From a virus (Duplodnaviria; Heunggongvirae; Uroviricota; Caudoviricetes): DNA of 64,000 nt. The stretch lies in IMG/VR virus record IMGVR_UViG_3300045988_009603. The stretch is one strand, 5' to 3'. Shown in pieces: positions 2,633 to 12,698 of this stretch. How positions within the stretch are numbered: the first letter of the stretch is position 1; every line of letters starts with the position of its first letter. Made by a program: the position numbers and the translations under genes. Under the pieces are notes generated by a model that saw only the letters and a list, made by a program, of their open reading frames with translations, made no database searches and was not told where the DNA came from.

Positions 2633-2794
2633 AAGGAGAAACCACAATGTACGTCAGAGACATACTGTATAAGGCTTCTTATAAAGTATAACTCTGTAAA
2701 AAAGCCCTGTCTAAAAATACTCTTCGGTAGCGAAAGGAAGAATACTTATAGCAGGGCATTATTATTATTTTAATTGAGAGAGAGTAAAATAACT

Positions 2795-2870
2795 TGGAGA
2801 ATCCGAAGGGACTCGAACCCTTATAAACCTGTTTTGCAGACAGGCACATAGCCATTTCTGTCACGGATTC
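2795..2870 (-). tRNA. tRNA-Cys (anticodon GCA)
   Basis: anticodon stem-loop CCTGT-CTGCAAA-ACAGG; T-loop TTCGAGT; U73 discriminator; CCA encoded. Confidence 0.75.
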
Positions 2871-2874
2871 AAAT

Positions 2875-2967
2875 TGGAGGAAGATACCAGACTTGAACTG
2901 GTACACCGATTTCTCAGCTACTGGCAGTTTAGCAAACTGCTCCCTTACCTTTTAGGGTTAATCTTCC
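2875..2967 (-). tRNA. tRNA-Ser (anticodon GCU), long variable arm
   Basis: acceptor GGAAGAT/ATCTTCC; anticodon loop TGCTAAA; T-loop GTTCAAGTC; about 93 nt. Confidence 0.75.
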
Positions 2968-2968
2968 A

Positions 2969-3703
2969 TTATTTCTGTAATGCGTTCTTCATTTCTGGTG
3001 TTGCAATAGTGTCGATTACACCAGTTTTACAAGCATCATCAAACCAGTCTGGTAAGATACCTGCTAAGAACCCATTGATATTCGTTTTAAGGTACTCTGC
3101 AATAAGGGCAGTTTCTTCTTCAATCATCTGCACAACTTCATCTGCATAAGCTGTAATCTTCGAGATACCTTCATTAATCTTACTAACAGCTTGGTTAGCT
3201 AAATCAGAAATAGTATCAAGACCTTTATCAATAGCATCCTGTAAGTCGCTTAATACATCATTAACGCCATCTAGTGTACTGTTAATTGTATCCATAGCTT
3301 TTTGACCATACTCTGTAGCAACACCCATAATACCACTAAATGGTGTACAACCAACTTGCTCTCCTGCTGCACCCATAACATTAGAGTAGCCTTTTGCTAC
3401 CTGCATACGTGATGAAAACTCATCAATGGACTTTTGACCATAATCTGTCAGTGTCTTAGTAGTTGATGTAGTGCTTGTCAGACTCGTTGTAAAGCTATTA
3501 AGCAGAACTGTTGTAAGTCCAGCAGCAATAAGCTTATCCTTTATTGTGGGGTCTGTTACAGAGCTAATAGAGCTTACAAGTGATGTAGAGGCAGCTACGG
3601 TTCCACCTAGAACTGCTGCACCAGTAATAAGGGGATTAGAAAACCCTCTACCGGTTTTTAAGAGATTAAAAATCTCCTTACCTTGTTCTGTCATCTCTTT
3701 CAT
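2969..3703 (-). CDS. hypothetical protein embedded in tRNA cluster
   Basis: ORF track 2969..3766; internal start MKEMTEQ at 3703 preferred because upstream part overlaps tRNA-Phe; Thr/Ser-rich, no recognised domain. Confidence 0.5.
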   Translation of the reverse strand: MKEMTEQGKEIFNLLKTGRGFSNPLITGAAVLGGTVAASTSLVSSISSVTDPTIKDKLIAAGLTTVLLNSFTTSLTSTTSTTKTLTDYGQKSIDEFSSRMQVAKGYSNVMGAAGEQVGCTPFSGIMGVATEYGQKAMDTINSTLDGVNDVLSDLQDAIDKGLDTISDLANQAVSKINEGISKITAYADEVVQMIEEETALIAEYLKTNINGFLAGILPDWFDDACKTGVIDTIATPEMKNALQK

Positions 3704-3719
3704 TAAGCACCTTTGAAAT

Positions 3720-3795
3720 TGGTAGTCCAGTGGGATTTGAACCCTCTTCTCATGTTTTTCAGACACGCGCTTTAACCATATAAGCTACTTGGACT
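3720..3795 (-). tRNA. tRNA-Phe (anticodon GAA)
   Basis: anticodon loop CTGAAAA; T-loop TTCAAAT; A73; T-stem has one non-WC pair so boundaries +/-2. Confidence 0.6.
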
Positions 3796-3801
3796 ATAAA
3801 T

Positions 3802-3877
3802 TGGGGTGACCTACGGGATTTGAACCCGTATAGACCATGTTCACAGCATGGGTCATTACCATTTATGATAAGGCCAC
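3802..3877 (-). tRNA. tRNA-His (anticodon GUG)
   Basis: anticodon stem CCATG/CATGG, loop CTGTGAA; T-arm ACGGG-TTCAAAT-CCCGT. Confidence 0.8.
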
Positions 3878-3908
3878 ATTTAAGGACTCTCGTAAGAACC
3901 CTTAGAAG

Positions 3909-3984
3909 TGGCAGCGGCATAAGGATTTGAACCTTAATAAGACAGCTTCAGAGACTGCTGCATTGCCAGTTATGCTATACCGCT
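3909..3984 (-). tRNA. tRNA-Gln (anticodon CUG)
   Basis: standard cloverleaf, D-stem GCAT/ATGC, anticodon loop CTCTGAA. Confidence 0.65.
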
Positions 3985-3989
3985 AAATT

Positions 3990-4068
3990 TGGTACTCCAT
4001 ATCGGATTCGAACCGATACATAACACAGATTTTAAGTCTGGCCTCTCTGCCAATTGGAGTAATGGAGC
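3990..4068 (-). tRNA. tRNA with anticodon UAA (Leu isoacceptor by anticodon), short variable arm
   Basis: anticodon loop CTTAAAA; D-loop CAATTGGCAGA; A73; T-arm ATCGG-TTCGAAT-CCGAT. Confidence 0.5.
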
Positions 4069-4070
4069 AT

Positions 4071-4146
4071 TGGCGGGGGATGTTGGAATTGAACCAACTT
4101 CTTCGATTTCAAAGACCGAGGTTTTAACCTTGTAAACTAATCCCCT
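4071..4146 (-). tRNA. tRNA-Gln (anticodon UUG)
   Basis: anticodon stem TCGGT/ATCGA, loop CTTTGAA; T-arm GTTGG-TTCAATT-CCAAC. Confidence 0.6.
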
Positions 4147-4154
4147 TTAAATCT

Positions 4155-4712
4155 TTACTTCCTTAGTGGATGAATAAAGAATGCCAACATAACTCTTTCC
4201 CTTGAGAATGCTCTTTCTTCTGGGACAACACTTTTAAGTTTCCATCCAACATAAATTCTCCAGTAGAATTGTTTACCAAAGACTTTAATTGATGGGATAA
4301 AGGCGAATAACCCCCAAGCATTACTGTTCCACATTAGGAGATAACCTGTCTGATTATCTTCATGGTCAGAACTTACGTTGATATTACCTTTCCACTTAGT
4401 AACATCTTTTACATCTCTTCCTAACACATGGTAAGAGAAGTTATAAGCTTTGTTTCTCCAGAGCCATCCAACTCTCTGCAAATAGACACCAAGCTTACCA
4501 ATCTTTCTAATCTTAGCCCATCTTTTAACGTGACCTTCATCACCATCAATTGGGTTGTCATATGTCTCCATCCATCTGAATCCAAAAGGTAGATGTCCTT
4601 TCTTCTCACTATAGAATGGAACTACAAAAGGTGCTAAGATAACTGCTAAGATTGCTGCCAATGGGTCTAGCAAAGCTAGGAAAATCCATGAAGCATACTT
4701 CAAATATCTCAT
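4155..4712 (-). CDS. hypothetical membrane protein embedded in tRNA cluster
   Basis: 185 aa ORF; hydrophobic N-terminus IFLALLDPLAAILAVILAPFVVPF; Trp-rich. Confidence 0.5.
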   Translation of the reverse strand: MRYLKYASWIFLALLDPLAAILAVILAPFVVPFYSEKKGHLPFGFRWMETYDNPIDGDEGHVKRWAKIRKIGKLGVYLQRVGWLWRNKAYNFSYHVLGRDVKDVTKWKGNINVSSDHEDNQTGYLLMWNSNAWGLFAFIPSIKVFGKQFYWRIYVGWKLKSVVPEERAFSRERVMLAFFIHPLRK

Positions 4713-4731
4713 TTAAATAGCCTCTTTAAAT

Positions 4732-4807
4732 TGGCGCAGGATAAGGGATTCGAACCCCTATTAACAGCTTCGTAGACTGTTGCTCTATCCATTTGAACTA
4801 ATCCTGC
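4732..4807 (-). tRNA. tRNA-Arg (anticodon ACG)
   Basis: acceptor GCAGGAT/ATCCTGC; anticodon loop CTACGAA; T-loop TTCGAAT. Confidence 0.75.
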
Positions 4808-4812
4808 AAAAT

Positions 4813-4890
4813 TGGTGTTCCAAGACGGATTCGAACCGTCACTAGTACAAGGTTTGAGCTTGCATCCTCTGCCAATTGGGATACTGGAAC
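4813..4890 (-). tRNA. tRNA with anticodon CAA (Leu isoacceptor by anticodon), short variable arm
   Basis: anticodon stem GCAAG/CTTGT, loop CTCAAAC; D-loop CAATTGGCAGA; A73. Confidence 0.5.
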
Positions 4891-4891
4891 A

Positions 4892-4966
4892 TGGTACTCA
4901 CTAAAGGACTTGAACCTTTTTCTTCATCTTGTAAGGGTGATGTTTTACCATATAAACTAAGCGAGT
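4892..4966 (-). tRNA. tRNA-Val (anticodon UAC)
   Basis: anticodon loop CTTACAA; T-arm AAAGG-TTCAAGT-CCTTT; one C-A mismatch in anticodon stem. Confidence 0.6.
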
Positions 4967-5061
4967 ATGAAAGAGGTCTGAAGTTGTGCCGCTAACTCAA
5001 CTCCGTGGAATTTGTTACGGTCTTCAGTTGACACCAGCGGTCTTTCACTTGACCTCTGAAT
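4967..5061 (-). ncRNA. structured non-tRNA spacer (pseudoknot-like crossed helices)
   Basis: no T-loop motif; crossed complementarities CTGAAG/CTTCAG and GCCGCT/AGCGGT plus outer GAGGTC/GACCTC. Confidence 0.3.
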
Positions 5062-5138
5062 TGGTGCTGCTCACAGGACTCGAACCTGCATTTCCATCCT
5101 TACAAGGGATGTGTAATAGCCAATTATACGAAAGCAGC
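5062..5138 (-). tRNA. tRNA-Thr (anticodon UGU)
   Basis: anticodon stem CATCC/GGATG, loop CTTGTAA; T-arm GCAGG-TTCGAGT-CCTGT. Confidence 0.8.
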
Positions 5139-5139
5139 A

Positions 5140-5553
5140 TTAAACTTTTATGATACCAGCATGTACTTTTCTGTGACAGTTAGCGCACAAGACAATGCAC
5201 TTTCTGATTTCATCTTTTAATCTTTTTGTGGAGTATGAATAAAGTGATGCAGGATTCAAATCTTTCTGGGAAGGGTCTGTATGGTGTAAATCCAATGCAA
5301 CTGGTTCTTTCTCACCACATATATGACATTTGCATAAAGCTTTGTACCTTCTAGCTAGAGTCTTGTTATACTCTCTCTTGAAGTTACGAGTACTTTTAAT
5401 AGCCTCTTTCCTTTTATCATTTGCTTGATAACTCTTTGCATCACGAAGTCTTGCACAGTCTTTGCATTGACTTTGAAGACCATCTTTCTTGTTCTTATTC
5501 TTATGGAATAAGCTTTCATCTTTTGGTATTCTGCAAGTACTGCATATTTTCAT
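5140..5553 (-). CDS. HNH endonuclease embedded in tRNA cluster
   Basis: 137 aa; Cys-rich, LDLHHTDP...CANCHRKVH HNH motif. Confidence 0.75.
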   Translation of the reverse strand: MKICSTCRIPKDESLFHKNKNKKDGLQSQCKDCARLRDAKSYQANDKRKEAIKSTRNFKREYNKTLARRYKALCKCHICGEKEPVALDLHHTDPSQKDLNPASLYSYSTKRLKDEIRKCIVLCANCHRKVHAGIIKV

Positions 5554-5567
5554 ATCACACCTTAATT

Positions 5568-5642
5568 TGGAGCATCCAGAGGGAATCGAACCCTCAACCT
5601 CAGTTTGGAAGACTGTAATTTTCCCGTTTAAACTATGGATGC
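5568..5642 (-). tRNA. tRNA-Gly (anticodon UCC)
   Basis: acceptor GCATCCA/TGGATGC; anticodon loop CTTCCAA; T-loop TTCGATT. Confidence 0.7.
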
Positions 5643-5648
5643 ACTAAT

Positions 5649-5724
5649 TGGTGGAGTCACTGAGAATTGAACTCAGTTACCGAGTTTGCAAAACTCGAAT
5701 TTTAACCATATAAACTATGACCCC
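5649..5724 (-). tRNA. tRNA-Ala (anticodon UGC)
   Basis: anticodon stem CGAGT/ACTCG, loop TTTGCAA; G3-U70 pair in acceptor stem. Confidence 0.8.
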
Positions 5725-5730
5725 AATGTT

Positions 5731-5806
5731 TGGTACAGGTGGAGGGAATTGAACCCATCGTCTTACTGATTAAGAGTCAGCCGCATAACCATTTTGCTAC
5801 ACCTGC
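5731..5806 (-). tRNA. tRNA-Lys (anticodon CUU)
   Basis: anticodon loop CTCTTAA; paralogous to the UUU copy at 6957-7032; T-stem only GGG/CCC. Confidence 0.6.
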
Positions 5807-5813
5807 ATTAATT

Positions 5814-5891
5814 TGGTAGGAGACAAGGGATTCGAACCCTCAAACACCAACTTCTAAGGATGGTAGGTTTACCAATTACCGTCAATCTCCC
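5814..5891 (-). tRNA. tRNA with anticodon UAG (Leu isoacceptor by anticodon), short variable arm
   Basis: anticodon loop CTTAGAA (stem has U-U mismatch); T-arm GAGGG-TTCGAAT-CCCTT; D-loop TAATTGGTAAA. Confidence 0.45.
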
Positions 5892-5966
5892 ATTAAATCT
5901 TTTTAGAGAACTTCTAAGAACCTAAGCAACAAGGTTCCACAACAAGCTGTAATAACCTTAGAAGCC

Positions 5967-5990
5967 CTCTAAAAAGACCTAAATAGGTCT
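5967..5990 (-). terminator. internal terminator-like hairpin in tRNA operon spacer
   Basis: minus-strand AGACCUAUUUAGGUCU followed by U5. Confidence 0.45.
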
Positions 5991-6146
5991 TTGCATAGTC
6001 TTGTTTAATCCGGTGACTAGAACCTTTGGAGAGCTTGATATTATCTCTTCTCCGTGACACCTACTAGGTGCTTTATCAGTGTGTACGACAATACACGAGG
6101 GATACCAAAGCAACATCCGAATGAAGCTTGGCTTTAAATCTTATTA

Positions 6147-6236
6147 GGCGGTAAGTAAAGGAGTCGAACCCTCACCGTATCTCTACAGTGGCAACAGTTT
6201 TCAAGACTGTTTGGCTGCCATTAGCCGCTACCTACC
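6147..6236 (-). tRNA. tRNA-Ser (anticodon UGA), long variable arm
   Basis: anticodon stem ACAGT/ACTGT, loop CTTGAAA; about 90 nt; G73; 3' CC encoded, terminal A not. Confidence 0.7.
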
Positions 6237-6249
6237 CCTAATAAGACTT

Positions 6250-6332
6250 TGGCATGGGACGGAGGAGTTGAACCCCTTTGAAACGGTTTTGGAGGCCGTT
6301 GCTCATGCCTTAGAGTCTTAACATCGTCCCAC
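6250..6332 (-). tRNA. tRNA-Trp-like (anticodon CCA) with extra nucleotides between acceptor stem and D-stem
   Basis: anticodon arm ACGGC-CUCCAAA-ACCGU resembles E. coli tRNA-Trp; acceptor GTGGGAC/GTCCCAT; about 7 nt longer than canonical. Confidence 0.45.
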
Positions 6333-6474
6333 ACTATAATTCGAAGCTTACCGTATTTTCGCAACACTGTAAAGCCCCTTCTCAGATTATTTACATGTTC
6401 TGGAAAACATGAGATACAGACCACCTCCTTACACGGAGACCCGATAAGGTCGTCTAAGCAATCTGCTAACTATT

Positions 6475-6551
6475 TGGCACACCCTACAGGATTCGAACCT
6501 GTAACTAACGATTTAGAAGACCGTTGCTCTATCCAATTGAACTAAGGGTGC
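6475..6551 (-). tRNA. tRNA-Arg (anticodon UCU)
   Basis: canonical D-arm GTTC-AATTGGATA-GAGC; anticodon loop CTTCTAA. Confidence 0.8.
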
Positions 6552-6798
6552 ATTAATCTTTAAAGACTCTCTTAGAAAGCCCTTAAAGATGCCCACCTTA
6601 TTAATCATACCGTGGGCGAGTACGCCAAATTCTTTGATGAGGGATTGGAAGACCTCACTGGTGTTTAGCCTATCAAGCTACTGCCAGAAAAACATTGTCG
6701 TTTGCATTTATTTTAAATTTGCAAAATAGACGCTACGCAACGAAAACTAAGGTTACTATAAAGTGGTCACATGTTAATGTCAACAACTTTATTGAAAT

Positions 6799-6874
6799 TG
6801 GTACTGGTAGGTGGAATCGAACCACCGATGTTCCCTTATCAGGGGAGTGTTATAACCTTCTTAACTATACCAGC
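6799..6874 (-). tRNA. tRNA-Ile (anticodon GAU)
   Basis: anticodon loop CTGATAA; T-arm GGTGG-TTCGATT-CCACC. Confidence 0.8.
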
Positions 6875-6875
6875 T

Positions 6876-6952
6876 TGGAGGTTCAGATGGGAATCGAACC
6901 CACATTCATAGGGCTTATGAGACCCCTGCATTACCTTATCTGCGACTGAACC
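6876..6952 (-). tRNA. tRNA-Met (anticodon CAU; elongator Met or Ile2 not distinguishable)
   Basis: acceptor GGTTCAG/CTGAACC; anticodon loop CTCATAA. Confidence 0.7.
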
Positions 6953-6956
6953 ATAT

Positions 6957-7032
6957 TGGTAGAAGTGGAGGGATTCGAACCCATCGCCTGTCAGATTAAA
7001 AGTCTGCCGCATCACCATTCTGCTACACTTCC
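6957..7032 (-). tRNA. tRNA-Lys (anticodon UUU)
   Basis: anticodon loop CTTTTAA; same unusual T-stem as the CUU copy. Confidence 0.65.
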
Positions 7033-7179
7033 ATTAAATTATCTTTGTAGATAAGCTACCCAGACTTGCTTAAGGTCTGTAGCGATGTGCTTTGTTGGGT
7101 TTAAATCTAGAATTTACCCTTTCACCCTTTGTGGTCGCATACTCACAGGTAAGCTTAATAACTTATCTACAAAGATAAT

Positions 7180-7316
7180 TACCAGACCGTTGTTTATCAT
7201 CTTAAGTGCTACCATTACACCAACTCGACATCTGCCGAGTGAAGGAATCGAACCTTCGCCTTTTCTTTACCGGAGAAATAGATTGTTTAAGTTTTGCTGT
7301 AAACGGTCTTCTGTAA
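7180..7316 (-). ncRNA. tRNA-like element with permuted arm order, enclosed by a terminal inverted repeat
   Basis: minus strand reads terminal stem AGACCGUU, T-arm GAAGG-UUCGAUU-CCUUC, ACUCGGC, AGAU, GUCGAGU, D-arm-like GUGUAAUGGUAGCAC, closing AACGGUCU; no canonical 5'-to-3' cloverleaf. Confidence 0.3.
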
Positions 7317-7490
7317 ATTTGTTGAGCCAGACCAAGTTTTAAATTTTTTCAAAATTAAATTGGCTTGAAAATATCATACGTACTTGCTGAATTTGGTCTT
7401 CTGCTCCTTTAAAGAATACTCGTAAGAACTCTTTAAGGGAGGGGCTAAATAGCCCTCTCAAAACATCATCTTGAAATACTTATTATAATT

Positions 7491-7568
7491 TGGCGGTTAC
7501 GAAGGGATTTGAACCCTCATCATCTCCCGTGACAGGGGAGTATTTTAACCAGATTAAACTACATAACC
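7491..7568 (-). tRNA. tRNA-Asp (anticodon GUC)
   Basis: anticodon stem CTCCC/GGGAG, loop CTGTCAC; G73. Confidence 0.85.
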
Positions 7569-7574
7569 TTTATT

Positions 7575-7662
7575 TGGTGTGCCGTGTAGGAGTCGAACCT
7601 ACCGAGTCTCAATGACAAGGGATTTACAGTCCCCACCGCTACCATCTACGGGATAACGACAC
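7575..7662 (-). tRNA. tRNA-Tyr (anticodon GUA), long variable arm
   Basis: anticodon loop CTGTAAA; T-arm GTAGG-TTCGACT-CCTAC; about 88 nt. Confidence 0.8.
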
Positions 7663-7671
7663 ATTTAAATT

Positions 7672-7748
7672 TGGCGGTTAGTCAGGGATTCGAACCCTGT
7701 GCCATTCGCTTAACAGGCGACCGCACATACCTTATGTGCTTCCTAACC
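7672..7748 (-). tRNA. tRNA-Asn (anticodon GUU)
   Basis: D-stem GCAC/GTGC; anticodon loop CTGTTAA. Confidence 0.8.
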
Positions 7749-7825
7749 TTAATACATTGCCAGACCGTGTTTTTTCTTTTATCCGCAAAAAGTAGTTTGT
7801 TGCTGCATACGGTCTTCTGCAAAAT

Positions 7826-7902
7826 TGGAGGCGGGTGCAGGAGTCGAACCTGCCGATACCATGCTAATGAGACATGTGAGACGCCCTTTCTCTATACCCG
7901 CA
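7826..7902 (-). tRNA. tRNA with anticodon CAU (second Met-type; initiator or Ile2 possible)
   Basis: anticodon loop CTCATTA; T-arm GCAGG-TTCGACT-CCTGC; 1:72 mismatch. Confidence 0.55.
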
Positions 7903-7993
7903 ATTCTTAATGACCAGACCAAATATCTTCTTTGTCCGATTTATCTTCAGATGAATAAGATTAAGTTTGCTGCAATTGGTCTTCTGTCAAAAC

Positions 7994-8071
7994 TGGCGTT
8001 CCAGAAGGGATTTGAACCCTCAAATATCCACTTTGAAAGAGTGGTGACTTTACCGTTTTGTCTACTGGAAC
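7994..8071 (-). tRNA. tRNA-Glu (anticodon UUC)
   Basis: anticodon stem CCACT/AGTGG, loop CTTTCAA; acceptor GTTCCAG/CTGGAAC. Confidence 0.85.
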
Positions 8072-8078
8072 ATTAATT

Positions 8079-8155
8079 TGGTCTCTGTTGGAGGACTTGA
8101 ACCTCCGGCCTTACCGCCCCAAACGGAACGCTCTACCAAGCTGAGCTAAACAGAG
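8079..8155 (-). tRNA. tRNA-Pro (anticodon UGG)
   Basis: canonical D-arm GCTC-AGCTTGGTA-GAGC; anticodon loop TTTGGGG. Confidence 0.75.
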
Positions 8156-8181
8156 ATAAACTTTTCAAACTCTATGTAACC

Positions 8182-8211
8182 ACTTTAACATTATTTTTTA
8201 GTGGTTGTCAA
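8182..8211 (-). promoter_or_regulatory. putative sigma70-like promoter of tRNA operon
   Basis: minus strand TTGACA-N18-TAAAGT, A/T-rich upstream; about 25 nt upstream of tRNA-Pro 5' end. Confidence 0.45.
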
Positions 8212-8270: not shown

Positions 8271-8311
8271 ACATATTAAAGGGTATCAAACACATTGTCA
8301 ATACCCTTTTT
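8271..8311. terminator. bidirectional terminator-like hairpin downstream of the vWA gene
   Basis: GGGTAT-N14-ATACCC flanked by T-runs on both strands. Confidence 0.45.
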
Positions 8312-8319
8312 AAAACTTT

Positions 8320-9735
8320 TTACCAGATGTAACGGTCAATCATTACTGCTTTGAGCATTACGCTGGTTGGGTCAAACTTCTCACCACCAAGCAGAGCTTT
8401 TAAAGTGGCTGGAGAGAACCCTGATACCATCGCTACACCATTATCCTTAACAGATACTTCGCAAGTACCATTACGGTTTGCTAAGTACCAGAATACTAGT
8501 TGTGGCATTTCGTACCCAGCTTTTTTGTACTTACTCTGAATTGCTTCAAAGTTTGTACGACCATTTGCACCATCAACCTGATTAAACTCCATATCAGAGA
8601 AGATAATAAGCTTACTTGGCATATCTTTCTGAGTCAAGTTGTTTCTCTTACCTACCTCAAGAATACGGTCAAAAGCTGCTTGTAAGTTAGTTGAACCATA
8701 TTCAACATGACGCATTACCTGACGATGACGGTTTCGTAAATCACCACTCAGTTCAATGAAATGAGGGTTTGTTGAATAGACCATTAACTCATCTTTAAAG
8801 CAACCTGTATTGCGTTCTGCTACATACAAGGCAAGTGATACACCAATATCAAGGGCAGTAATTGAGCCAAGATTCACCCAAGACATTGAGCTTGAAACAT
8901 CAGTCATACACAAGATGTTTTCACCTTCTGCCATCCAGTTTGGTAGTGCTTTCCACTGCTCATTAGCAACATCTGCATTACCATACTTGATAGATTTAAT
9001 CACATCGTATGGGTAAACAGCACCAGCGTTAATCTTGGCCTCACCTTTTGAGAGGGACTCGATGTAAGCTTTATAACGTTCCCCATCTTTACGGTTAAAG
9101 AGTTTTTGGTAACGTGCAGCAGCGAGTGAAGGAATCTTGCTGTAGTCAATCTTACCAAACTCATTAGCAGAGATTTTTTGCTCAACCGTATCAGACAGTG
9201 CAGATAACAGTGTGCGGTACTCTTTCTCGCTTAAGTTTGCAAACTTGCAGAAACGTTTTACAAACTGTTTGTGGCGTGGTTTTACTCGTGGCAACCACTT
9301 AGCTGCTAAACCTGCTGTTGCAGGGTCTAGTAATGCTGCTTCTAAATGTTTGAAGGCATCCGTCTCAAAGCGAGTACCTACGAAGATTTTGAAGTCATCA
9401 AAACGACCAAGTTCTGCAATCTTGTCCATAATGCGAAGAACCTGTGTAGGTTCTAAAACTTTATCTTCAATTGCTTGAAGTAAAACAGTTCGGAAAGCTT
9501 TACGCTCACCCATACCTTCTCGTACATCTCGCATATGCAGTAAAATACGAACTGCAACATCAACATCCTCACGCAAAGCTTTGTAGAACAGGTCTGGTAA
9601 GATTTCTACATTGCTACGGCTTGAGCCAGCGGCTTTGTAAAAGTCTACCAGAGCAGACATTGATGAAGTATGGTTTACAGCACCATTTTCAGTTCGACCT
9701 GCATGAAGGTGCGCATGTTTAAATAACTCGCTCAT
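8320..9735 (-). CDS. von Willebrand factor A (vWA) domain protein with alpha-helical N-terminal domain
   Basis: 471 aa; MIDAS-like DVSSSMS motif about residue 275. Confidence 0.65.
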   Translation of the reverse strand: MSELFKHAHLHAGRTENGAVNHTSSMSALVDFYKAAGSSRSNVEILPDLFYKALREDVDVAVRILLHMRDVREGMGERKAFRTVLLQAIEDKVLEPTQVLRIMDKIAELGRFDDFKIFVGTRFETDAFKHLEAALLDPATAGLAAKWLPRVKPRHKQFVKRFCKFANLSEKEYRTLLSALSDTVEQKISANEFGKIDYSKIPSLAAARYQKLFNRKDGERYKAYIESLSKGEAKINAGAVYPYDVIKSIKYGNADVANEQWKALPNWMAEGENILCMTDVSSSMSWVNLGSITALDIGVSLALYVAERNTGCFKDELMVYSTNPHFIELSGDLRNRHRQVMRHVEYGSTNLQAAFDRILEVGKRNNLTQKDMPSKLIIFSDMEFNQVDGANGRTNFEAIQSKYKKAGYEMPQLVFWYLANRNGTCEVSVKDNGVAMVSGFSPATLKALLGGEKFDPTSVMLKAVMIDRYIW

Positions 9736-9816
9736 ATTTTACTCTCTTCTCTCATTTGTTGTTTGATGTGACAGACTTTAGAGCAACTTTGTAGAGTCTG
9801 TCAACACCTTTTAAAA

Positions 9817-11445: not shown

Positions 11446-11817
11446 ATGAAGGCTAAGAGTGCAAAAGACTTTTATTGCTTCCTACAATCCTATATCAATT
11501 CCGTGGAGAAAGGTGATAGATACAATCTTAAAGATGTTATTGCATCACCTTTAACATGGAGACTTAGCAAATGGCCTGAAGAAGATATCACACCCACTAG
11601 TAAACAACCTACCTACATCCCAGATATTAATCTCCCAGATTCAGATAAGTTATTGTATCCAATGTTCCACATTGTTGGGCTTGGTACATTTCTTATGGAT
11701 ATCCAGTATGTAATCGGTAAAGGTTATAAGGTTGAAGGTATTGTTGTTGGTGATGTATCTCCACAACATAAAGGCTATTTTAGATTAAACGCACGTTTAG
11801 AGGCTAAAAAGAAATGA
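11446..11817 (+). CDS. hypothetical protein, paralogous to N-terminal domain of next gene
   Basis: 123 aa; shares FLMDIQYVIGKGY-type motif with 11814..12698. Confidence 0.55.
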   Translation: MKAKSAKDFYCFLQSYINSVEKGDRYNLKDVIASPLTWRLSKWPEEDITPTSKQPTYIPDINLPDSDKLLYPMFHIVGLGTFLMDIQYVIGKGYKVEGIVVGDVSPQHKGYFRLNARLEAKKK

Positions 11818-12698
11818 TTAAAGCAAAGACTTACCCAGACTTCAAAGAATTTGTAAAGGGTTTCGTTGCAAATGTAAAGGCTGGTAAGAGATATGATTTT
11901 AGAACATACCAAGAAGCTATTTTACCACTCACCTATAGCTCATATTGGCCTGAAGCTGATATTGCAGAGGTTGAGAAGTTTGACTACAAACCAGACTACA
12001 AAGTTCCTTTCAGTGATGAACTTCTTTACAGTGTTGGTGCACAGATGAGAACTTCTGATTTCTTCATGGATTTACAGTATGCAATCATCAATGGTAAAGA
12101 TGTTGACACGGTGTATTGTGAATGGTTGGCAAGAGTTAAGCCGTTCTCAATGTTGAATGCTAAGTTGAAGGATGCCATTAAGCCACCAGTAATTACTCAG
12201 CAGCCAACAAACCAAACAGTCAATGAAGGTGGAGCACTTACCCTAAGTGTTCTCGCAACTAATGCCACTGGGTATCAATGGAAGAAGGATGGTGAGGACA
12301 TCTCCAGTGCCACTTCTGCAACTTACACAAAACAATCCGTAGCGCCTTCTGACGCTGGTTCATACACTTGTGTTGTATCTGGAGAGGGTGGGACAAGTGT
12401 CACCTCAGATGCAGCAACAGTGACTGTGAATGCCTTACCAGTAATTACTCAGCAGCCAACCAATCAAGAAATCACTGAAGGCGAGAACTTAACGCTGAAT
12501 GTTGTGGCTACTGGTGCAACAGGTTACCAGTGGAAGAAAGGCGAGGAAGTCATCCCAGACGCAACTGCTGCAACTTATACCAAAGAAGGTGCAACCGCTG
12601 CTGATGCAGGAAGCTACACCTGTGTAGTGACTGGCGCAGGTGGCTCTGTAACATCTAATGCAGCAACAGTTACAGTTAACCCAACAGGGGAGGCATAA
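11814..12698 (+). CDS. protein with two tandem Ig-like domains
   Basis: 294 aa; duplicated about 80 aa unit VITQQPTNQ...GSYTCVV...ATVTVN. Confidence 0.6.
   Translation: MIKAKTYPDFKEFVKGFVANVKAGKRYDFRTYQEAILPLTYSSYWPEADIAEVEKFDYKPDYKVPFSDELLYSVGAQMRTSDFFMDLQYAIINGKDVDTVYCEWLARVKPFSMLNAKLKDAIKPPVITQQPTNQTVNEGGALTLSVLATNATGYQWKKDGEDISSATSATYTKQSVAPSDAGSYTCVVSGEGGTSVTSDAATVTVNALPVITQQPTNQEITEGENLTLNVVATGATGYQWKKGEEVIPDATAATYTKEGATAADAGSYTCVVTGAGGSVTSNAATVTVNPTGEA

Follow-up and report, generated by a model that had tools for sequence, protein, structure and literature searches.

Does the dense tRNA array on the minus strand of this phage sequence provide a complete tRNA set that could free the phage from reliance on host tRNA pools, and is anything else encoded with it? 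Within the window (the whole 64-kb stretch of DNA that was analysed), the array is flanked by a Ro60-like gene and the terminase gene. Sequence comparison assigns the source to Felixounavirus, as a probable Felix O1-like myovirus: a 5.8-kb region matches 349 phage records, with 97% identity to Escherichia phage EcoM2 and 96% to Felix O1, and the tRNAs annotated in the EcoM2 and Felix O1 records run in the same order as here. As the Felix O1-like tRNA cluster has been in print since 2010, with 22 tRNAs given for the corresponding cluster (PMC3185647), the core finding was already known; four unannotated Y RNAs and a conserved, odd tRNA-Trp-like gene that is missed by standard software go beyond it. 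We consider it probable that the locus is a Felix O1-like array of 26 canonical tRNAs and a Trp-like gene, with a second system that resembles Y RNA/Ro60.

The 26 tRNA genes called by ARAGORN are confined to the minus strand at positions 2795–8155; the rest of the 64 kb yielded no call (Table 1). Their isotypes are Cys, Ser (two), Phe, His, Gln (two), Leu (three), Arg (two), Val, Thr, Gly, Ala, Lys (two), Ile, CAU-anticodon (two), Asp, Tyr, Asn, Glu, and Pro. The sequence-only reading had listed 27 genes for all 20 amino acids; most of its calls were retained, no anticodon was reassigned, and for the 26 genes the anticodons and isotypes agreed one-for-one. The 27th gene (Trp-like) was rejected by ARAGORN and Rfam, yet it is conserved; 19 amino acids are each served by a called gene, and Trp is represented only by a non-canonical candidate. 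The gathering score of the Rfam tRNA model was passed by 23 of the 26 genes; Ser-UGA and Tyr produced just weak matches, to the tRNA-Sec model, and the Rfam search yielded nothing for the CAU tRNA at 7826–7902. The 3′ CCA is encoded by 25 of the 26 genes and by the Trp-like gene, the exception being Ser-UGA (CCU); the accompanying statement that almost all of the genes continue into AUU was too strong, as 15 of 25 CCA ends are followed by A(A)UU.

Table 1. Features of the tRNA array and its surroundings (window coordinates).
Feature	Position	Strand	Evidence
Terminator-like long hairpin GCCCUG...CAGGGC, then UUUUUU	2698..2757	-	fold
tRNA-Cys (GCA)	2795..2870	-	ARAGORN; Rfam 56.4 bits
tRNA-Ser (GCU)	2875..2967	-	ARAGORN; Rfam 46.2 bits
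DUF7217 protein, 244 aa	2969..3703	-	Pfam/PHROG
tRNA-Phe (GAA)	3720..3795	-	ARAGORN; Rfam 45.0 bits
tRNA-His (GUG)	3802..3877	-	ARAGORN; Rfam 53.3 bits
tRNA-Gln (CUG)	3909..3984	-	ARAGORN; Rfam 58.7 bits
tRNA-Leu (UAA), 79 nt, short variable region	3990..4068	-	ARAGORN; Rfam 47.5 bits
tRNA-Gln (UUG)	4071..4146	-	ARAGORN; Rfam 56.6 bits
DUF7338 protein, 185 aa, hydrophobic N-terminus	4155..4712	-	Pfam/PHROG
tRNA-Arg (ACG)	4732..4807	-	ARAGORN; Rfam 59.8 bits
tRNA-Leu (CAA), 78 nt, short variable region	4813..4890	-	ARAGORN; Rfam 43.6 bits
tRNA-Val (UAC)	4892..4966	-	ARAGORN; Rfam 60.0 bits
tRNA-Thr (UGU)	5062..5138	-	ARAGORN; Rfam 54.7 bits
HNH endonuclease, 137 aa	5140..5553	-	PHROG 2255 HNH E 4.7e-41; Pfam HNH weak
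tRNA-Gly (UCC)	5568..5642	-	ARAGORN; Rfam 59.6 bits
tRNA-Ala (UGC)	5649..5724	-	ARAGORN; Rfam 57.3 bits
tRNA-Lys (CUU)	5731..5806	-	ARAGORN; Rfam 56.9 bits
tRNA-Leu (UAG), 78 nt, short variable region	5814..5891	-	ARAGORN; Rfam 40.0 bits
tRNA-Ser (UGA), 3′ end CCU	6147..6236	-	ARAGORN; Rfam tRNA-Sec only, 36.9 bits
tRNA-Trp-like gene, non-canonical	6250..6332	-	Rfam tRNA-Sec 23 bits; conservation; covariation
tRNA-Arg (UCU)	6475..6551	-	ARAGORN; Rfam 62.8 bits
Internal promoter-like site TTGACA N17 TATAGT	6755..6783	-	11/12 match, region's best
tRNA-Ile (GAU)	6799..6874	-	ARAGORN; Rfam 62.3 bits
CAU-anticodon tRNA	6876..6952	-	ARAGORN; Rfam 54.3 bits
tRNA-Lys (UUU)	6957..7032	-	ARAGORN; Rfam 54.4 bits
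Y-RNA-like E4, YrlA type	7179..7316	-	R1 top match, 55.8 bits, E 7.7e-10, full length
Y-RNA-like E3, short type	7324..7406	-	R2 20.1 bits, E 0.013
tRNA-Asp (GUC)	7491..7568	-	ARAGORN; Rfam 65.2 bits
tRNA-Tyr (GUA), long variable arm	7575..7662	-	ARAGORN; Rfam tRNA-Sec only, 29.6 bits
tRNA-Asn (GUU)	7672..7748	-	ARAGORN; Rfam 48.0 bits
Y-RNA-like E2, short type	7757..7822	-	R2 29.4 bits, E 4e-5; R1 21.1 bits
CAU-anticodon tRNA, initiator-like	7826..7902	-	ARAGORN
Y-RNA-like E1, short type	7911..7989	-	R1 29.9 bits, E 2.8e-4; R2 28.6 bits, E 7e-5
tRNA-Glu (UUC)	7994..8071	-	ARAGORN; Rfam 60.6 bits
tRNA-Pro (UGG)	8079..8155	-	ARAGORN; Rfam tRNA 57.7 bits
Promoter-like site TTGACA N18 TAAAGT, TG before -10	8182..8211	-	motif match
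Promoter-like site TTGACA N17 TAATAT	8273..8301	-	motif match
Ro60-like protein, 471 aa	8320..9735	-	Pfam DUF2828 + DUF7788; predicted fold
Promoter-like site TTGACA N18 TAAAGT, upstream of Ro60-like gene	9775..9804	-	motif match

Several genes depart from the usual tRNA pattern. The initiator-like CAU tRNA contains a 1:72 mismatch (U·C here and A·A in Yersinia phage P778), U37, and one additional connector nucleotide, and its Felix O1 counterpart has a Cove score of 28.9 (PMC3185647). The second CAU tRNA is a candidate for either elongator Met or lysidine-type Ile2. tRNA-His has C73 but U at position −1, whereas E. coli hisR encodes G−1; in Felix O1, tRNA-His was listed as 'pseudo', as was tRNA-Tyr by tRNAscan-SE (PMC3185647). 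tRNA-Leu (UAA) is shorter than the 87-nt E. coli leuT, and tRNA-Lys (UUU) and E. coli lysT share the same anticodon loop. Relatives differ in single tRNAs: at the position that corresponds to tRNA-Arg (UCU), a tRNA is neither called nor annotated in EcoM2 and Felix O1.

The Trp-like gene has an 8-bp acceptor stem, an invariant 9-nt connector (AUGUUAAGA), and a 3-bp D stem, followed by an anticodon stem with a 31·39 mismatch, the loop CUCCAAA, a 4-bp T stem, G73, and the encoded CCA. It is identical to E. coli trpT at 56 of 83 positions, including the entire anticodon loop and G73. The gene was found in 236 phage records, with a tRNA annotation in none of the 30 rows listed. In an alignment of eight phages, 97.5% of the cells were paired, and in six pairs (15 cells) both sides had changed with pairing kept, compared with 0 in slid controls. 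Positions 6250–6332 thus appear to hold a real, conserved tRNA-like gene, with an unusual cloverleaf that is backed by compensatory changes.

The gene directly upstream of the array, which the sequence-only reading did not mention, is predicted to encode a Ro60-like protein that is composed of a helical TROVE-like N-terminal part and a vWA domain with a conserved DxSxS motif (D279, S281, and S283 are invariant). Among PDB structures, its AlphaFold model (pLDDT 86) was closest in fold to Ro60 (2i91, 1yvr, 1yvp, 9nfa), a TROVE domain (9kop), and D. radiodurans Rsr (2nvo), with E values of 2e-8 to 1e-6 and TM scores of 0.55–0.66. Sequence searches returned no Pfam TROVE match and no PDB match, which leaves the predicted fold as the basis of the assignment; the protein is 34% identical across its full length to a mycobacteriophage 'Ro-like RNA binding protein'.

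Four elements (E1–E4), interleaved with the tRNAs of the first sub-array and likewise missing from the sequence-only reading, are putative Y RNAs that would belong with this gene. CAGAAGACC and GGUCUGG each occur four times, exactly and on the minus strand, within 7182–7986. The elements share a predicted closing structure, and their flanks differ yet are complementary. E1, in the Glu/Met spacer, consists of an outer 4-bp helix, an AGA bulge, the inner helix AGACCAA/UUGGUCU, and a bulged G, followed by CAGCAA; E2 occupies the Met/Asn spacer. In E4, the same type of closing stem encloses a circularly permuted tRNA-like core, as in YrlA, with a V hairpin, a T arm (GAAGG-UUCGAUU-CCUUC), a 7-bp acceptor-like hairpin (ACUCGGC/GUCGAGU), and a D arm (GUGU-AAUGGUA-GCAC), and this core gives a partial Rfam tRNA match (22 bits). 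In phages SUSP2 and Moogle, the acceptor-like stem is swapped for other sequences that still pair, and in Yersinia phage P778 the inner helix changes in a compensatory manner from AGACC/GGUCU to GGACU/AGUCC. Covariance models R1 (from 14 non-Felix phages) and R2, both built from the Ro-adjacent RNAs of other phages without any Felix-like sequence, placed E4, E1, E2, and E3 at the top within the window, E3 being the fourth-best R2 match. Because the script that selected the elements for both models demanded a closing helix, the covariation seen there is partly circular. Across 76 further phage loci that contain a Ro-like gene, the strict motif was found within 1 kb 53 times on the strand of the gene and 2 times on the opposite strand, and mycobacteriophage Archie has three elements of this build directly after its Ro-like gene. 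The phage Y RNA family always adjoins Ro60-like (DUF2828) genes, and each of the four elements comprises a closing helix with conserved bulges and then CAGCAA. The 5′-strand motif GNCGAAN0-1G that is carried by cellular YrlA RNAs (Chen et al., PMC4201824) is absent from E1–E4.

Both additions to the published cluster have rival readings. The Trp-like sequence could be a dead tRNA-Trp pseudogene, with the phage using host tRNA-Trp and its set covering 19 amino acids rather than 20, in keeping with the rejection by ARAGORN (which makes no call at 6250–6332) and Rfam, the missing tRNA annotation in the 30 rows listed, the insertion in the D region, and the loop-adjacent anticodon-stem mismatch. 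We regard this as unlikely, because conservation spans Felix O1-like phages, Pectobacterium phage Arno18, and Yersinia phage P778, the last of which keeps the gene even though its Ro-like protein is merely 53% identical; moreover, the anticodon loop core UCCAA, connector, G73, and CCA are all invariant, and the paired changes described above have no equivalent in the controls. The four repeats, in turn, could be nonfunctional tRNA leftovers or repeated spacer or processing signals with a coincidental likeness to Y RNAs. They are located in tRNA spacers, E4 holds pieces that resemble tRNA halves, Rfam 15 matches none of them, and, folded one sequence at a time, they barely exceed shuffled sequence in stability (z −1.0 to −1.4); tandem tRNAs can also mimic YrlA in searches (Chen et al., PMC4201824), and R1 matches tRNA–tRNA junctions with 17–25 bits. 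These junction matches, however, are confined to model positions 46–98 and score far below E4, which covers the full model. The closing helix and CAGCAA are unrelated to tRNA and recur by Ro-like genes without nearby tRNA genes (e.g. loci L010, L012, L015, and L017), and the strand bias of 53 to 2 and compensatory changes across genera also make a coincidence highly improbable.

From the observed genes, structures, conservation, and family membership, we infer how the array and the second system may be expressed and used. The TTGACA-N18-TAAAGT sequence that had been proposed as the promoter is present at 8211–8182, and the site at 8273–8301 sits within a hairpin just past the Ro60-like stop codon. 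Promoter-like sites are at shuffle frequency (18 found, 16.8 expected), so the transcription units are deduced only from three sites, by how well these match and where they lie. With at least three such sites, the proposal of a single operon is not established. The proposed terminator past tRNA-Cys is borne out by a long hairpin (2757–2704, then U6), the enclosing 110-nt stretch of which folds at −28.1 kcal/mol (z −4.9). Host sigma-70 RNA polymerase would initiate at three or more promoter-like sites and stop at this hairpin, and the precursors would then be cut by host RNase P and 3′ processing enzymes. The same cuts would release E1–E4, which may bind the Ro60-like ring protein, and the complex may target structured or damaged RNA during infection, with tRNA or pre-tRNA as the likeliest substrates. 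This putative role of the Y RNAs is modelled on bacterial Rsr/Y RNA particles.

The tRNAs themselves would mainly supplement decoding of A/U-ending codons, which the phage (39% G+C) uses far more than its host; relative to an E. coli sample, the phage uses cognate A-ending codons 1.6–11 times more. Codon supplementation was argued earlier for Felix O1 (PMC3185647). It leaves unexplained the tRNAs for codons that are rarer in the phage than in the host, such as AGC and AUC. The sequence-only reading suggested a self-sufficient set that frees the phage from host pools and possibly shields it against tRNA-targeting defences; evasion of such defences is an idea in print for other phages (PMC10264068, PMC11464382, PMC11555353). 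Such a set would agree with the coverage of 19 amino acids plus the Trp-like gene, and with second isoacceptors that may be absent from the host or distinct from its own (e.g. Lys-CUU). T5 tRNAs rescue infection from PARIS and retron effectors, nuclease-resistant anticodon loops have been proposed (PMC11464382, PMC11555353, PMC10264068), and the neighboring Ro60-like/Y RNA module is tied to bacterial RNA repair operons (PMC7790460, PMC4201824). Completeness holds for amino acids, however, and not for codons: classical wobble lets the phage tRNAs read 45 of the 61 sense codons (78% of the phage's own codons), and extended U34 wobble raises this to 51 (92%). No phage tRNA reads GGU, the commonest Gly codon of the phage (39.7 per 1000), GGC, CGG, or several codons that end in C. 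Independence is further undercut by the non-canonical Trp candidate, the tRNA-His without encoded G−1, the host-like Lys-UUU anticodon loop, and the loss of single tRNAs, such as Arg-UCU, in relatives. Self-sufficiency is therefore rather unlikely, and codon supplementation is the better fit to the pattern.

The three protein genes that had been noted as interrupting the array (HNH, membrane-type, and 244 aa) are all present and are mobile or accessory interruptions. The DUF7338 protein bears a 'holin' label in some records, without evidence. The HNH gene is a mobile insertion that varies among relatives, the Felix O1 cluster containing two more HNH genes than are found here.

The 5.8-kb region analyzed here shares 97% identity with Escherichia phage EcoM2 and 96% with Salmonella phage Felix O1 (96-97% across 97-100% of the 5.8 kb), its gene order is that of published Felix O1-like genomes, and it is matched by 349 phage records, 219 of which cover at least 80% of its length. 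Because of this identity and these matching records, the window is, judged from its sequence, a Felixounavirus. In EcoM2 and Felix O1, the annotated tRNAs follow the same order and are located between an "RNA-binding protein" gene and the terminase gene. The window has the Ro-like gene, tRNAs, DUF7217 gene and terminase in the positions typical of Felixounavirus, at 95-97% nucleotide identity and with HNH genes inserted among the tRNAs. Published descriptions of the tRNA cluster exist for Felix O1 (Whichard et al. 2010, PMC3185647) and wV8 (PMC2674420); the Felix O1 genome paper reports 22 tRNAs found with tRNAscan-SE, labels Tyr and His as "pseudo", gives a low Cove score for a Met tRNA and discusses codon compensation (PMC3185647). 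The core of the tRNA finding was therefore already known, and the array itself is nothing new: it has been in print for Felix O1 since 2010 and occurs in hundreds of sequenced relatives.

When ARAGORN was run on the whole window, 26 tRNA genes were called, all on the minus strand and with the isotypes and anticodons derived by hand in the sequence-only reading, and none was found in the remaining 58 kb. The Rfam tRNA model RF00005 scored above its gathering threshold for 23 of them; Ser-UGA and Tyr, which have long variable arms, gave a sub-threshold match to the tRNA-Sec model only, and the first CAU tRNA had no Rfam match. A 3′ CCA is encoded in 25 of the 26 genes (Ser-UGA ends in CCU), but the AUU said to follow almost all of them is present, as AUU or AAUU, after only 15 of the 25. 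The three protein genes reported within the array are the HNH endonuclease gene (PHROG HNH, E 4.7e-41), a gene for a DUF7338 protein with a hydrophobic N-terminus, which is the predicted membrane protein, and the DUF7217 gene. In comparison with Felix O1, the window has 26 software-callable tRNAs versus 22 (the extra ones are Ser-GCU, Ser-UGA, Arg-UCU and the second CAU tRNA) and one HNH gene in the cluster versus three. The tRNA-Arg(UCU) gene is not called or annotated at the corresponding position in EcoM2 and Felix O1, and the extra HNH genes of Felix O1 are located in that stretch. The tRNA array is being reshuffled by mobile endonuclease genes.

Features of the tRNA array and its flanks (window coordinates)
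Feature	Coordinates	Strand	Description
26 tRNA genes	2795-8155	-	ARAGORN
Ro60-like gene	8320-9735	-	471 aa; Pfam DUF2828 + DUF7788 only
E1	7989-7911	-	short type
E2	7822-7757	-	short type
E3	7406-7324	-	short type
E4	7316-7179	-	YrlA type, four hairpins enclosed
Trp-like gene	6250-6332	-	27th tRNA-like gene
tRNA-Leu x3, short variable region	3990-4068, 4813-4890, 5814-5891	-	78-79 nt
tRNA-His	3802-3877	-	
First CAU tRNA	7826-7902	-	
Second CAU tRNA	6876-6952	-	
tRNA-Arg(UCU)	6475-6551	-	
DUF7217 gene	2969-3703		244 aa
DUF7338 gene	4155-4712		185 aa
HNH endonuclease gene	5140-5553		
Promoter-like sites	8301-8273, 8211-8182, 6783-6755	-	
Terminator-like hairpin	2757-2704		3′ of tRNA-Cys
Hairpin after Ro60-like stop codon	8278-8309	-	12 bp
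CUUUAAGGG...CUUUAAAG hairpins	6556-6590, 3881-3904, 7408-7436, 5895-5982	-	
Thr/Val spacer fold	4967-5061	-	-30.7 kcal/mol, z -2.9

The array described in the sequence-only reading was confirmed, but that account of the region omitted a Ro60-like gene and four Y RNA-like elements. The product of this gene, which stands just upstream of the tRNAs, is predicted to have the Ro60 fold, with a helical TROVE ring and a vWA domain. The link comes from the predicted fold and not from sequence matches: no Pfam TROVE match was obtained, phmmer against PDB sequences returned nothing relevant, and NCBIfam returned nothing. For the AlphaFold model (pLDDT 86), the ten best PDB fold matches were Ro60, a TROVE domain and D. 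radiodurans Rsr, with E-values of 2e-8 to 1e-6 and TM scores of 0.42-0.66 over about 510-570 aligned columns. A tblastn search gave 34% identity over the full length to a mycobacteriophage "Ro-like RNA binding protein", and the Ro-like protein of Yersinia phage P778, which shares the synteny and has 26 tRNAs, is 53% identical to that of the window. The vWA domain contains a DxSxS sequence, which we take to be the metal-site (MIDAS) motif of such domains, and its residues D279, S281 and S283 are invariant among 36 homologues. A literature search on DUF2828 retrieved only unrelated plant papers.

The spacers of the first tRNA sub-array contain four copies of CAGAAGACC, with GGUCUGG 50-120 nt further on (minus strand, 7182-7986). 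The corresponding elements, E1-E4, share a predicted closing structure that comprises an outer 4-bp helix whose complementarity is preserved although its sequence differs between the elements, a 3-nt AGA bulge, an inner helix AGACCNN/NNGGUCU and a bulged G. The 5′ strand of this structure reads CAGAAGACCNN(N)UNCAGCAA, and CAGCAA is located directly 3′ of it. E1 and E2 fill their tRNA spacers almost exactly, and all four elements lie on the strand of the Ro-like gene, with starts 330-1010 nt downstream of its stop codon; as characterized by Chen et al. 2014 (PMC4201824), a YrlA RNA is encoded no more than about 4 kb from a Ro60 orthologue. Within E4, a V hairpin comes first and is followed by a T arm (GAAGG-UUCGAUU-CCUUC), then by a 7-bp acceptor-like hairpin (ACUCGGC-AGAU-GUCGAGU) and last by a D arm (GUGU-AAUGGUA-GCAC), so that its predicted structure is that of a circularly permuted tRNA. 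A permuted tRNA core is the hallmark of YrlA-type Y RNAs (PMC4201824; bioRxiv 10.1101/312249). E1-E3 do not have a tRNA-like core and therefore correspond to the shorter, YrlB-like class. The single-sequence fold z-scores of E1-E4 are modest, and no Rfam 15 family fits them: at permissive thresholds there was no Y RNA or YrlA match in the four elements, and chance-level matches to Plastid-ycf2 (antisense of tRNAs), MIR473 and a permuted tmRNA (27 bits) were discarded.

The elements could be followed in other phages. All of them are kept in Felix O1, SUSP2 and Moogle, except that E1 was not found in Moogle (motif scan, three elements). The acceptor-like stem of E4 is replaced by other pairing sequences, ACACG/CGUGU in SUSP2 and ACCCUUC/GAAGGGU in Moogle, and the predicted E4 folds retain their four-arm layout. 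P778 does not have the exact Felix motif AGAAGACC...GGTCTG; it contains three elements with an inner helix GGACU.../...AGUCC, in which both ends of the Felix helix have changed in a compensatory way. Compensatory stem differences are thus present between the E1-E4 copies and in P778, Moogle and SUSP2. In mycobacteriophage Archie, three elements of the same build are located directly after the Ro-like gene, and the middle one is tRNA-like; it was in mycobacteriophages, beside Ro-like genes, that YrlA-like RNAs of phages were first reported (Chen et al. 2014, PMC4201824). The E4 loop in Moogle starts with G-CCA, like a tRNA 3′ end. An acceptor-like hairpin loop that begins with a discriminator base and CCA, as in ACCCUUC-G-CCA-AACA-GAAGGGU, was observed at 6153-6283 of the Moogle locus and in two other loci (L043, about 11480-11590; L075, 11795-11930 and 14484-14620). 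Such a hairpin could be a permuted tRNA gene in which opening by RNase P exposes a ready-made CCA end.

A wider comparison comprised 76 non-Felix loci with a relative of the Ro60-like protein (75 from IMG/VR and P778). A loose helix search gave many background matches and was replaced by a strict motif with strand and distance controls. Within 1 kb of the gene, the strict motif occurred 53 times on the strand of the gene and twice on the other strand (0.36 versus 0.014 per kb), and 37 of the 76 loci have at least one copy. In many of these loci there is no tRNA gene nearby, and the motif therefore accompanies the Ro-like gene rather than tRNAs. In raw counts, a tRNA gene is present within 10 kb in 31 of the 75 non-Ounavirinae IMG/VR loci (L009-L083), and 22 have at least three; in several IMG/VR loci (L024, L042 and L043), a tRNA directly abuts a Y RNA.

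Two covariance models that contained no Felix-like sequences, R1 (from 14 tRNA-like elements) and R2 (from 18 short elements), were then searched against both strands of the 64-kb window; their training elements had been selected with a helix requirement, and the E-values are rough owing to a shortened calibration. R1 ranked E4 first, at full length (55.8 bits, E 7.7e-10), and E1 second (29.9 bits, E 2.8e-4), and also matched E2 (21.1 bits). Its other matches were tRNA-tRNA junctions that fit only the T-to-D part of the model, the tandem-tRNA artefact of YrlA searches of which Chen et al. warned (PMC4201824). The four best R2 matches in the 64 kb were E2 (29.4 bits), E1 (28.6 bits), E4 (21.9 bits, partial) and E3 (20.1 bits). 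The spacer between tRNA-Thr and tRNA-Val forms a long fold with a CUGAAGACC variant of the Y RNA motif; it was matched by neither model and was not counted as a Y RNA.

The arrangement resembles the bacterial Rsr/YrlA systems in that a gene for a Ro60-fold protein has several small RNAs on the same strand beside it, each with a long stem formed by its 5′ and 3′ ends. E4 shares with YrlA the permuted T arm, acceptor-like hairpin and D arm and a U-purine dinucleotide before the D stem, and its 7-bp acceptor-like stem resembles that of the RNase P-cleaved M. smegmatis YrlA. The differences are that the window protein belongs to the DUF2828/DUF7788 branch and not to Pfam TROVE, and that there are four RNA copies, located between tRNA genes inside the tRNA operon. 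In addition, the cellular 5′-strand motif GNCGAAN0-1G (Chen et al. 2014) is absent in E1-E4; in place of this YrlA motif, their module consists of the AGR-helix and CAGCAA, and the 3′ side carries a bulged G. An AGR-helix with C[ACU]GCAA is the common feature of the phage Ro-adjacent RNA family. We conclude that E1-E4 belong to a phage branch within the Y RNA family and that E4 is of the YrlA type.

The 27th gene of the array, read from the sequence as Trp-like, proved to be conserved, but its status as a canonical tRNA was not upheld by software: there was no ARAGORN call and no RF00005 match, and a 23-bit match to tRNA-Sec was the only one in Rfam. The gene was found in 236 phage records. 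Among the 30 matches listed for it, none is annotated as a tRNA and most have no annotation at that place. Pairs of the cloverleaf read from the sequence were counted in an alignment of eight phages (the window, Felix O1, SUSP2, Moogle, Sf14, Sf17, Pectobacterium phage Arno18 and Yersinia phage P778), and as a control the count was repeated after sliding the partner 1-3 columns. In the cloverleaf, 97.5% of cells pair and two-sided changes occur at six pairs (15 cells), and in the slid-partner controls the number of pairs with two-sided changes was zero. In this structure, the acceptor stem has 8 bp (first position A or G, opposite U) and is joined to the D stem by an invariant 9-nt connector, AUGUUAAGA. 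The D stem has 3 bp, the T stem 4 bp and the anticodon stem 5 bp, the last being closed by a C.A or C.C mismatch; the anticodon loop measures 7 nt and the variable loop 5 nt, and both G73 and an encoded CCA are present. The loop is CUCCAAA in the window; its U33-CCA-A core is invariant in the eight phages, and its first and last two positions vary. Identity elements of E. coli TrpRS are the CCA anticodon, set in a 7-nt loop that has U33, and the discriminator G73. The gene has all of these features, and the standard 7/5 cloverleaf is absent.

Comparison with E. coli trpT showed 56 of 83 positions to be identical, including the whole anticodon loop and G73. Because of this identity and the compensatory pairs, the gene looks like a remodelled tRNA-Trp kept under selection rather than a decayed copy, its sequence apparently derived from an ordinary tRNA-Trp. 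Acceptor stems of 8 bp are known from tRNA-Sec, which is of the 8/5 type, and "allo-tRNAs" with an 8/4 build were reportedly described by Mukai et al. in 2017. The Trp-like gene resembles these tRNAs in that its 8-bp acceptor and 4-bp T stems keep 12 stacked pairs, and in that tRNA-Sec is its sole Rfam signal; it differs in the short variable loop, the CCA anticodon, the 9-nt connector and the 3-bp D stem. ARAGORN found no canonical Trp tRNA in the regions fetched from Felix-like relatives or P778. Standard predictors skip the sole Trp candidate, and survey counts of "isotypes covered" are therefore systematically off for this phage group. As a conserved gene of the 8/4 type, it points to a class of tRNA-like genes missed by predictors. 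The gene also occurs at 98.9% identity in a record labelled Staphylococcus phage SA1 (GU169904.1, 59833-59921), and a Campylobacter-labelled record matches it as well; these records are probably chimeric or contaminated with Felix O1-like sequence.

Neither the Trp-like gene nor the Y RNAs appear in the searched portion of the Felix O1 paper (PMC3185647) or in the GenBank annotation of the region. In all records inspected, E1-E4 are unannotated, covered by a "hypothetical protein" or occasionally called as tRNAs; Chen et al. 2014 list 22 phages with YrlA in their Supplemental Table S2 (PMC4201824). None of the database records inspected annotates the Y RNAs or the Trp-like gene for what they are, yet they are of known kinds.

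Several other tRNAs of the array are unusual. The three tRNA-Leu have variable regions of 5-7 nt, as opposed to the long arm of E. coli leuT (87 nt), with A73 and the Leu-type D loop AAUUGG[C/U]A retained. The possibility that they are mis-registered suppressors was rejected, as their loops (CUUAAAA, CUCAAAC and CUUAGAA) leave the anticodons UAA, CAA and UAG in place; P778 has the same short-arm kind, 77 nt in length. The tRNA-His has C73 but U at position -1, where the G-1 encoded in E. coli hisR is missing; its Felix O1 copy was labelled a pseudogene by tRNAscan-SE (PMC3185647). The first CAU tRNA has a U.C mismatch at 1:72, three nucleotides between the acceptor and D stems, and U37. Conservation of the 1:72 mismatch with different bases in P778 (A.A; L003 11015-11091) suggests that this tRNA is of the initiator type, and the second CAU tRNA could be Met or Ile2. 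P778 also contains, at about 12005-12150, a tRNA-like sequence with matching acceptor halves (GCGGGUG...CACCUGC), a good T arm and ∼70 extra nucleotides in the anticodon region; ARAGORN gives no call there, and the sequence could be an interrupted or intron-bearing tRNA.

By software, the tRNAs serve 19 amino acids, and Trp is added only by the non-canonical, conserved and structured candidate gene. Host independence had been proposed from the complete set, and at the codon level it does not follow. Under classical wobble, the 27 anticodons read 45 of the 61 sense codons, which account for 78% of phage codons in a sample of 51 long ORFs of the window; 51 codons, or 92% of phage codons, become readable if reading of U by U34 is also allowed in four-codon boxes. 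The commonest Gly codon of the phage, GGU (39.7 per 1000), has no phage tRNA, and GGC, CGG, six C-ending codons and AUA (unless one CAU tRNA is Ile2) are also uncovered. With the Trp candidate counted, the set is therefore complete by amino acid and not by codon, and "all 20 amino acids" does not equal host independence. The original interpretation is partly supported: an array of all isotypes, with Trp as a candidate, was retained, and the codon-complete set and the single operon were not. Relative to a 50-kb sample of E. coli K-12, the cognate codons of the U34 tRNAs are 1.6 to 11 times commoner in the phage, with the highest over-use for AGA (11-fold), the codon decoded by tRNA-Arg(UCU); other examples are ACA (3.8-fold) and CCA (2.9-fold). 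This pattern fits codon supplementation, in which the tRNAs would mostly boost A/U-ending codons.

A clustered, near-complete tRNA set biased toward A/U-ending codons in a large lytic coliphage is reminiscent of T4 and T5, as are the small ORFs, homing endonucleases and other small RNAs scattered within the cluster; to our knowledge, the Ro60-like/Y RNA module is not a feature of either phage. For the T4 and T5 arrays, codon compensation and escape from anticodon nucleases, PARIS and retrons have been proposed, and by analogy with the work on T5 it is plausible that the tRNAs described here help evade tRNA-cleaving defences (PMC10264068, PMC11464382, PMC11555353).

The comparisons establish the genes, structures, conservation and family membership of the Ro-like/Y RNA system, for which the following course of events can be proposed. 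The arrays would be transcribed by host RNA polymerase. E1-E4 lie between tRNA genes, so tRNA-processing enzymes would release them, with RNase P and 3′ processing at the flanking tRNAs liberating both tRNAs and Y RNAs. The Y RNAs would bind the Ro-like ring via the conserved bulged helix and CAGCAA, and by analogy the particle may act on misfolded or damaged structured RNA, most plausibly phage or host tRNAs. Analogues are the Rsr/Y RNA/PNPase particles and the rsr-yrlBA-rtcBA RNA repair operon of Salmonella (PMC4201824, PMC7790460). A more far-reaching proposal, which we regard as unlikely, is that a phage-encoded particle composed of the Ro60-like protein and the four Y RNAs serves in tRNA surveillance or counter-defence, in functional coupling with the tRNA array. 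In this scenario, tRNA-processing enzymes would cut the Y RNAs from tRNA precursors, E4 as a tRNA mimic would dock tRNA-handling host factors onto the Ro ring (or decoy tRNA-cleaving defence nucleases), and the 8/4 Trp-like, G-1-less His, short-arm Leu and mismatched CAU tRNAs would be variants shaped by conflict. We know of no Rsr in E. coli K-12 itself, and Felix O1-like phages would therefore, if this is true, provide a clean genetic system in which to address the role of bacterial Ro/Y RNA particles, a long-open question. A Ro60-like gene and four Y RNAs threaded through tRNA genes are thus present in E. coli and Salmonella phages that are in wide use, which offers an easy and tractable coliphage system in which to ask about the Ro/Y RNA role during infection, and the phage-wide RNA family, recognizable by its AGR helix, CAGCAA and bulged G, can now be searched for and annotated.

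With regard to transcription, the promoter proposed upstream of tRNA-Pro was located at the second of the promoter-like sites, and the terminator-like hairpin after tRNA-Cys has a U6 tail and z = -4.9 versus shuffles. The proposed single operon did not hold, as there are three promoter-like sites on the same strand and one terminator-like hairpin, and the array probably consists of at least two transcription units. The best promoter-like site of the region (6783-6755, 11/12) lies between tRNA-Ile and tRNA-Arg(UCU); the sites come from a consensus scan alone, and such matches are no commoner here than in shuffled sequence. The -35 box of the next promoter-like site falls within the hairpin that directly follows the Ro60-like stop codon, and termination of the Ro-like transcript may be coupled there with initiation of the tRNA transcript. 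A family of stable hairpins built on CUUUAAGGG...CUUUAAAG (z -1.7 to -5.7) includes several G-U pairs, which makes it specific to minus-strand RNA. Three of its four members stop just 5′ of a tRNA (Arg-UCU, His and Leu-UAG), and the fourth (7408-7436) is located just upstream of E3; these hairpins could be processing or RNase III sites.
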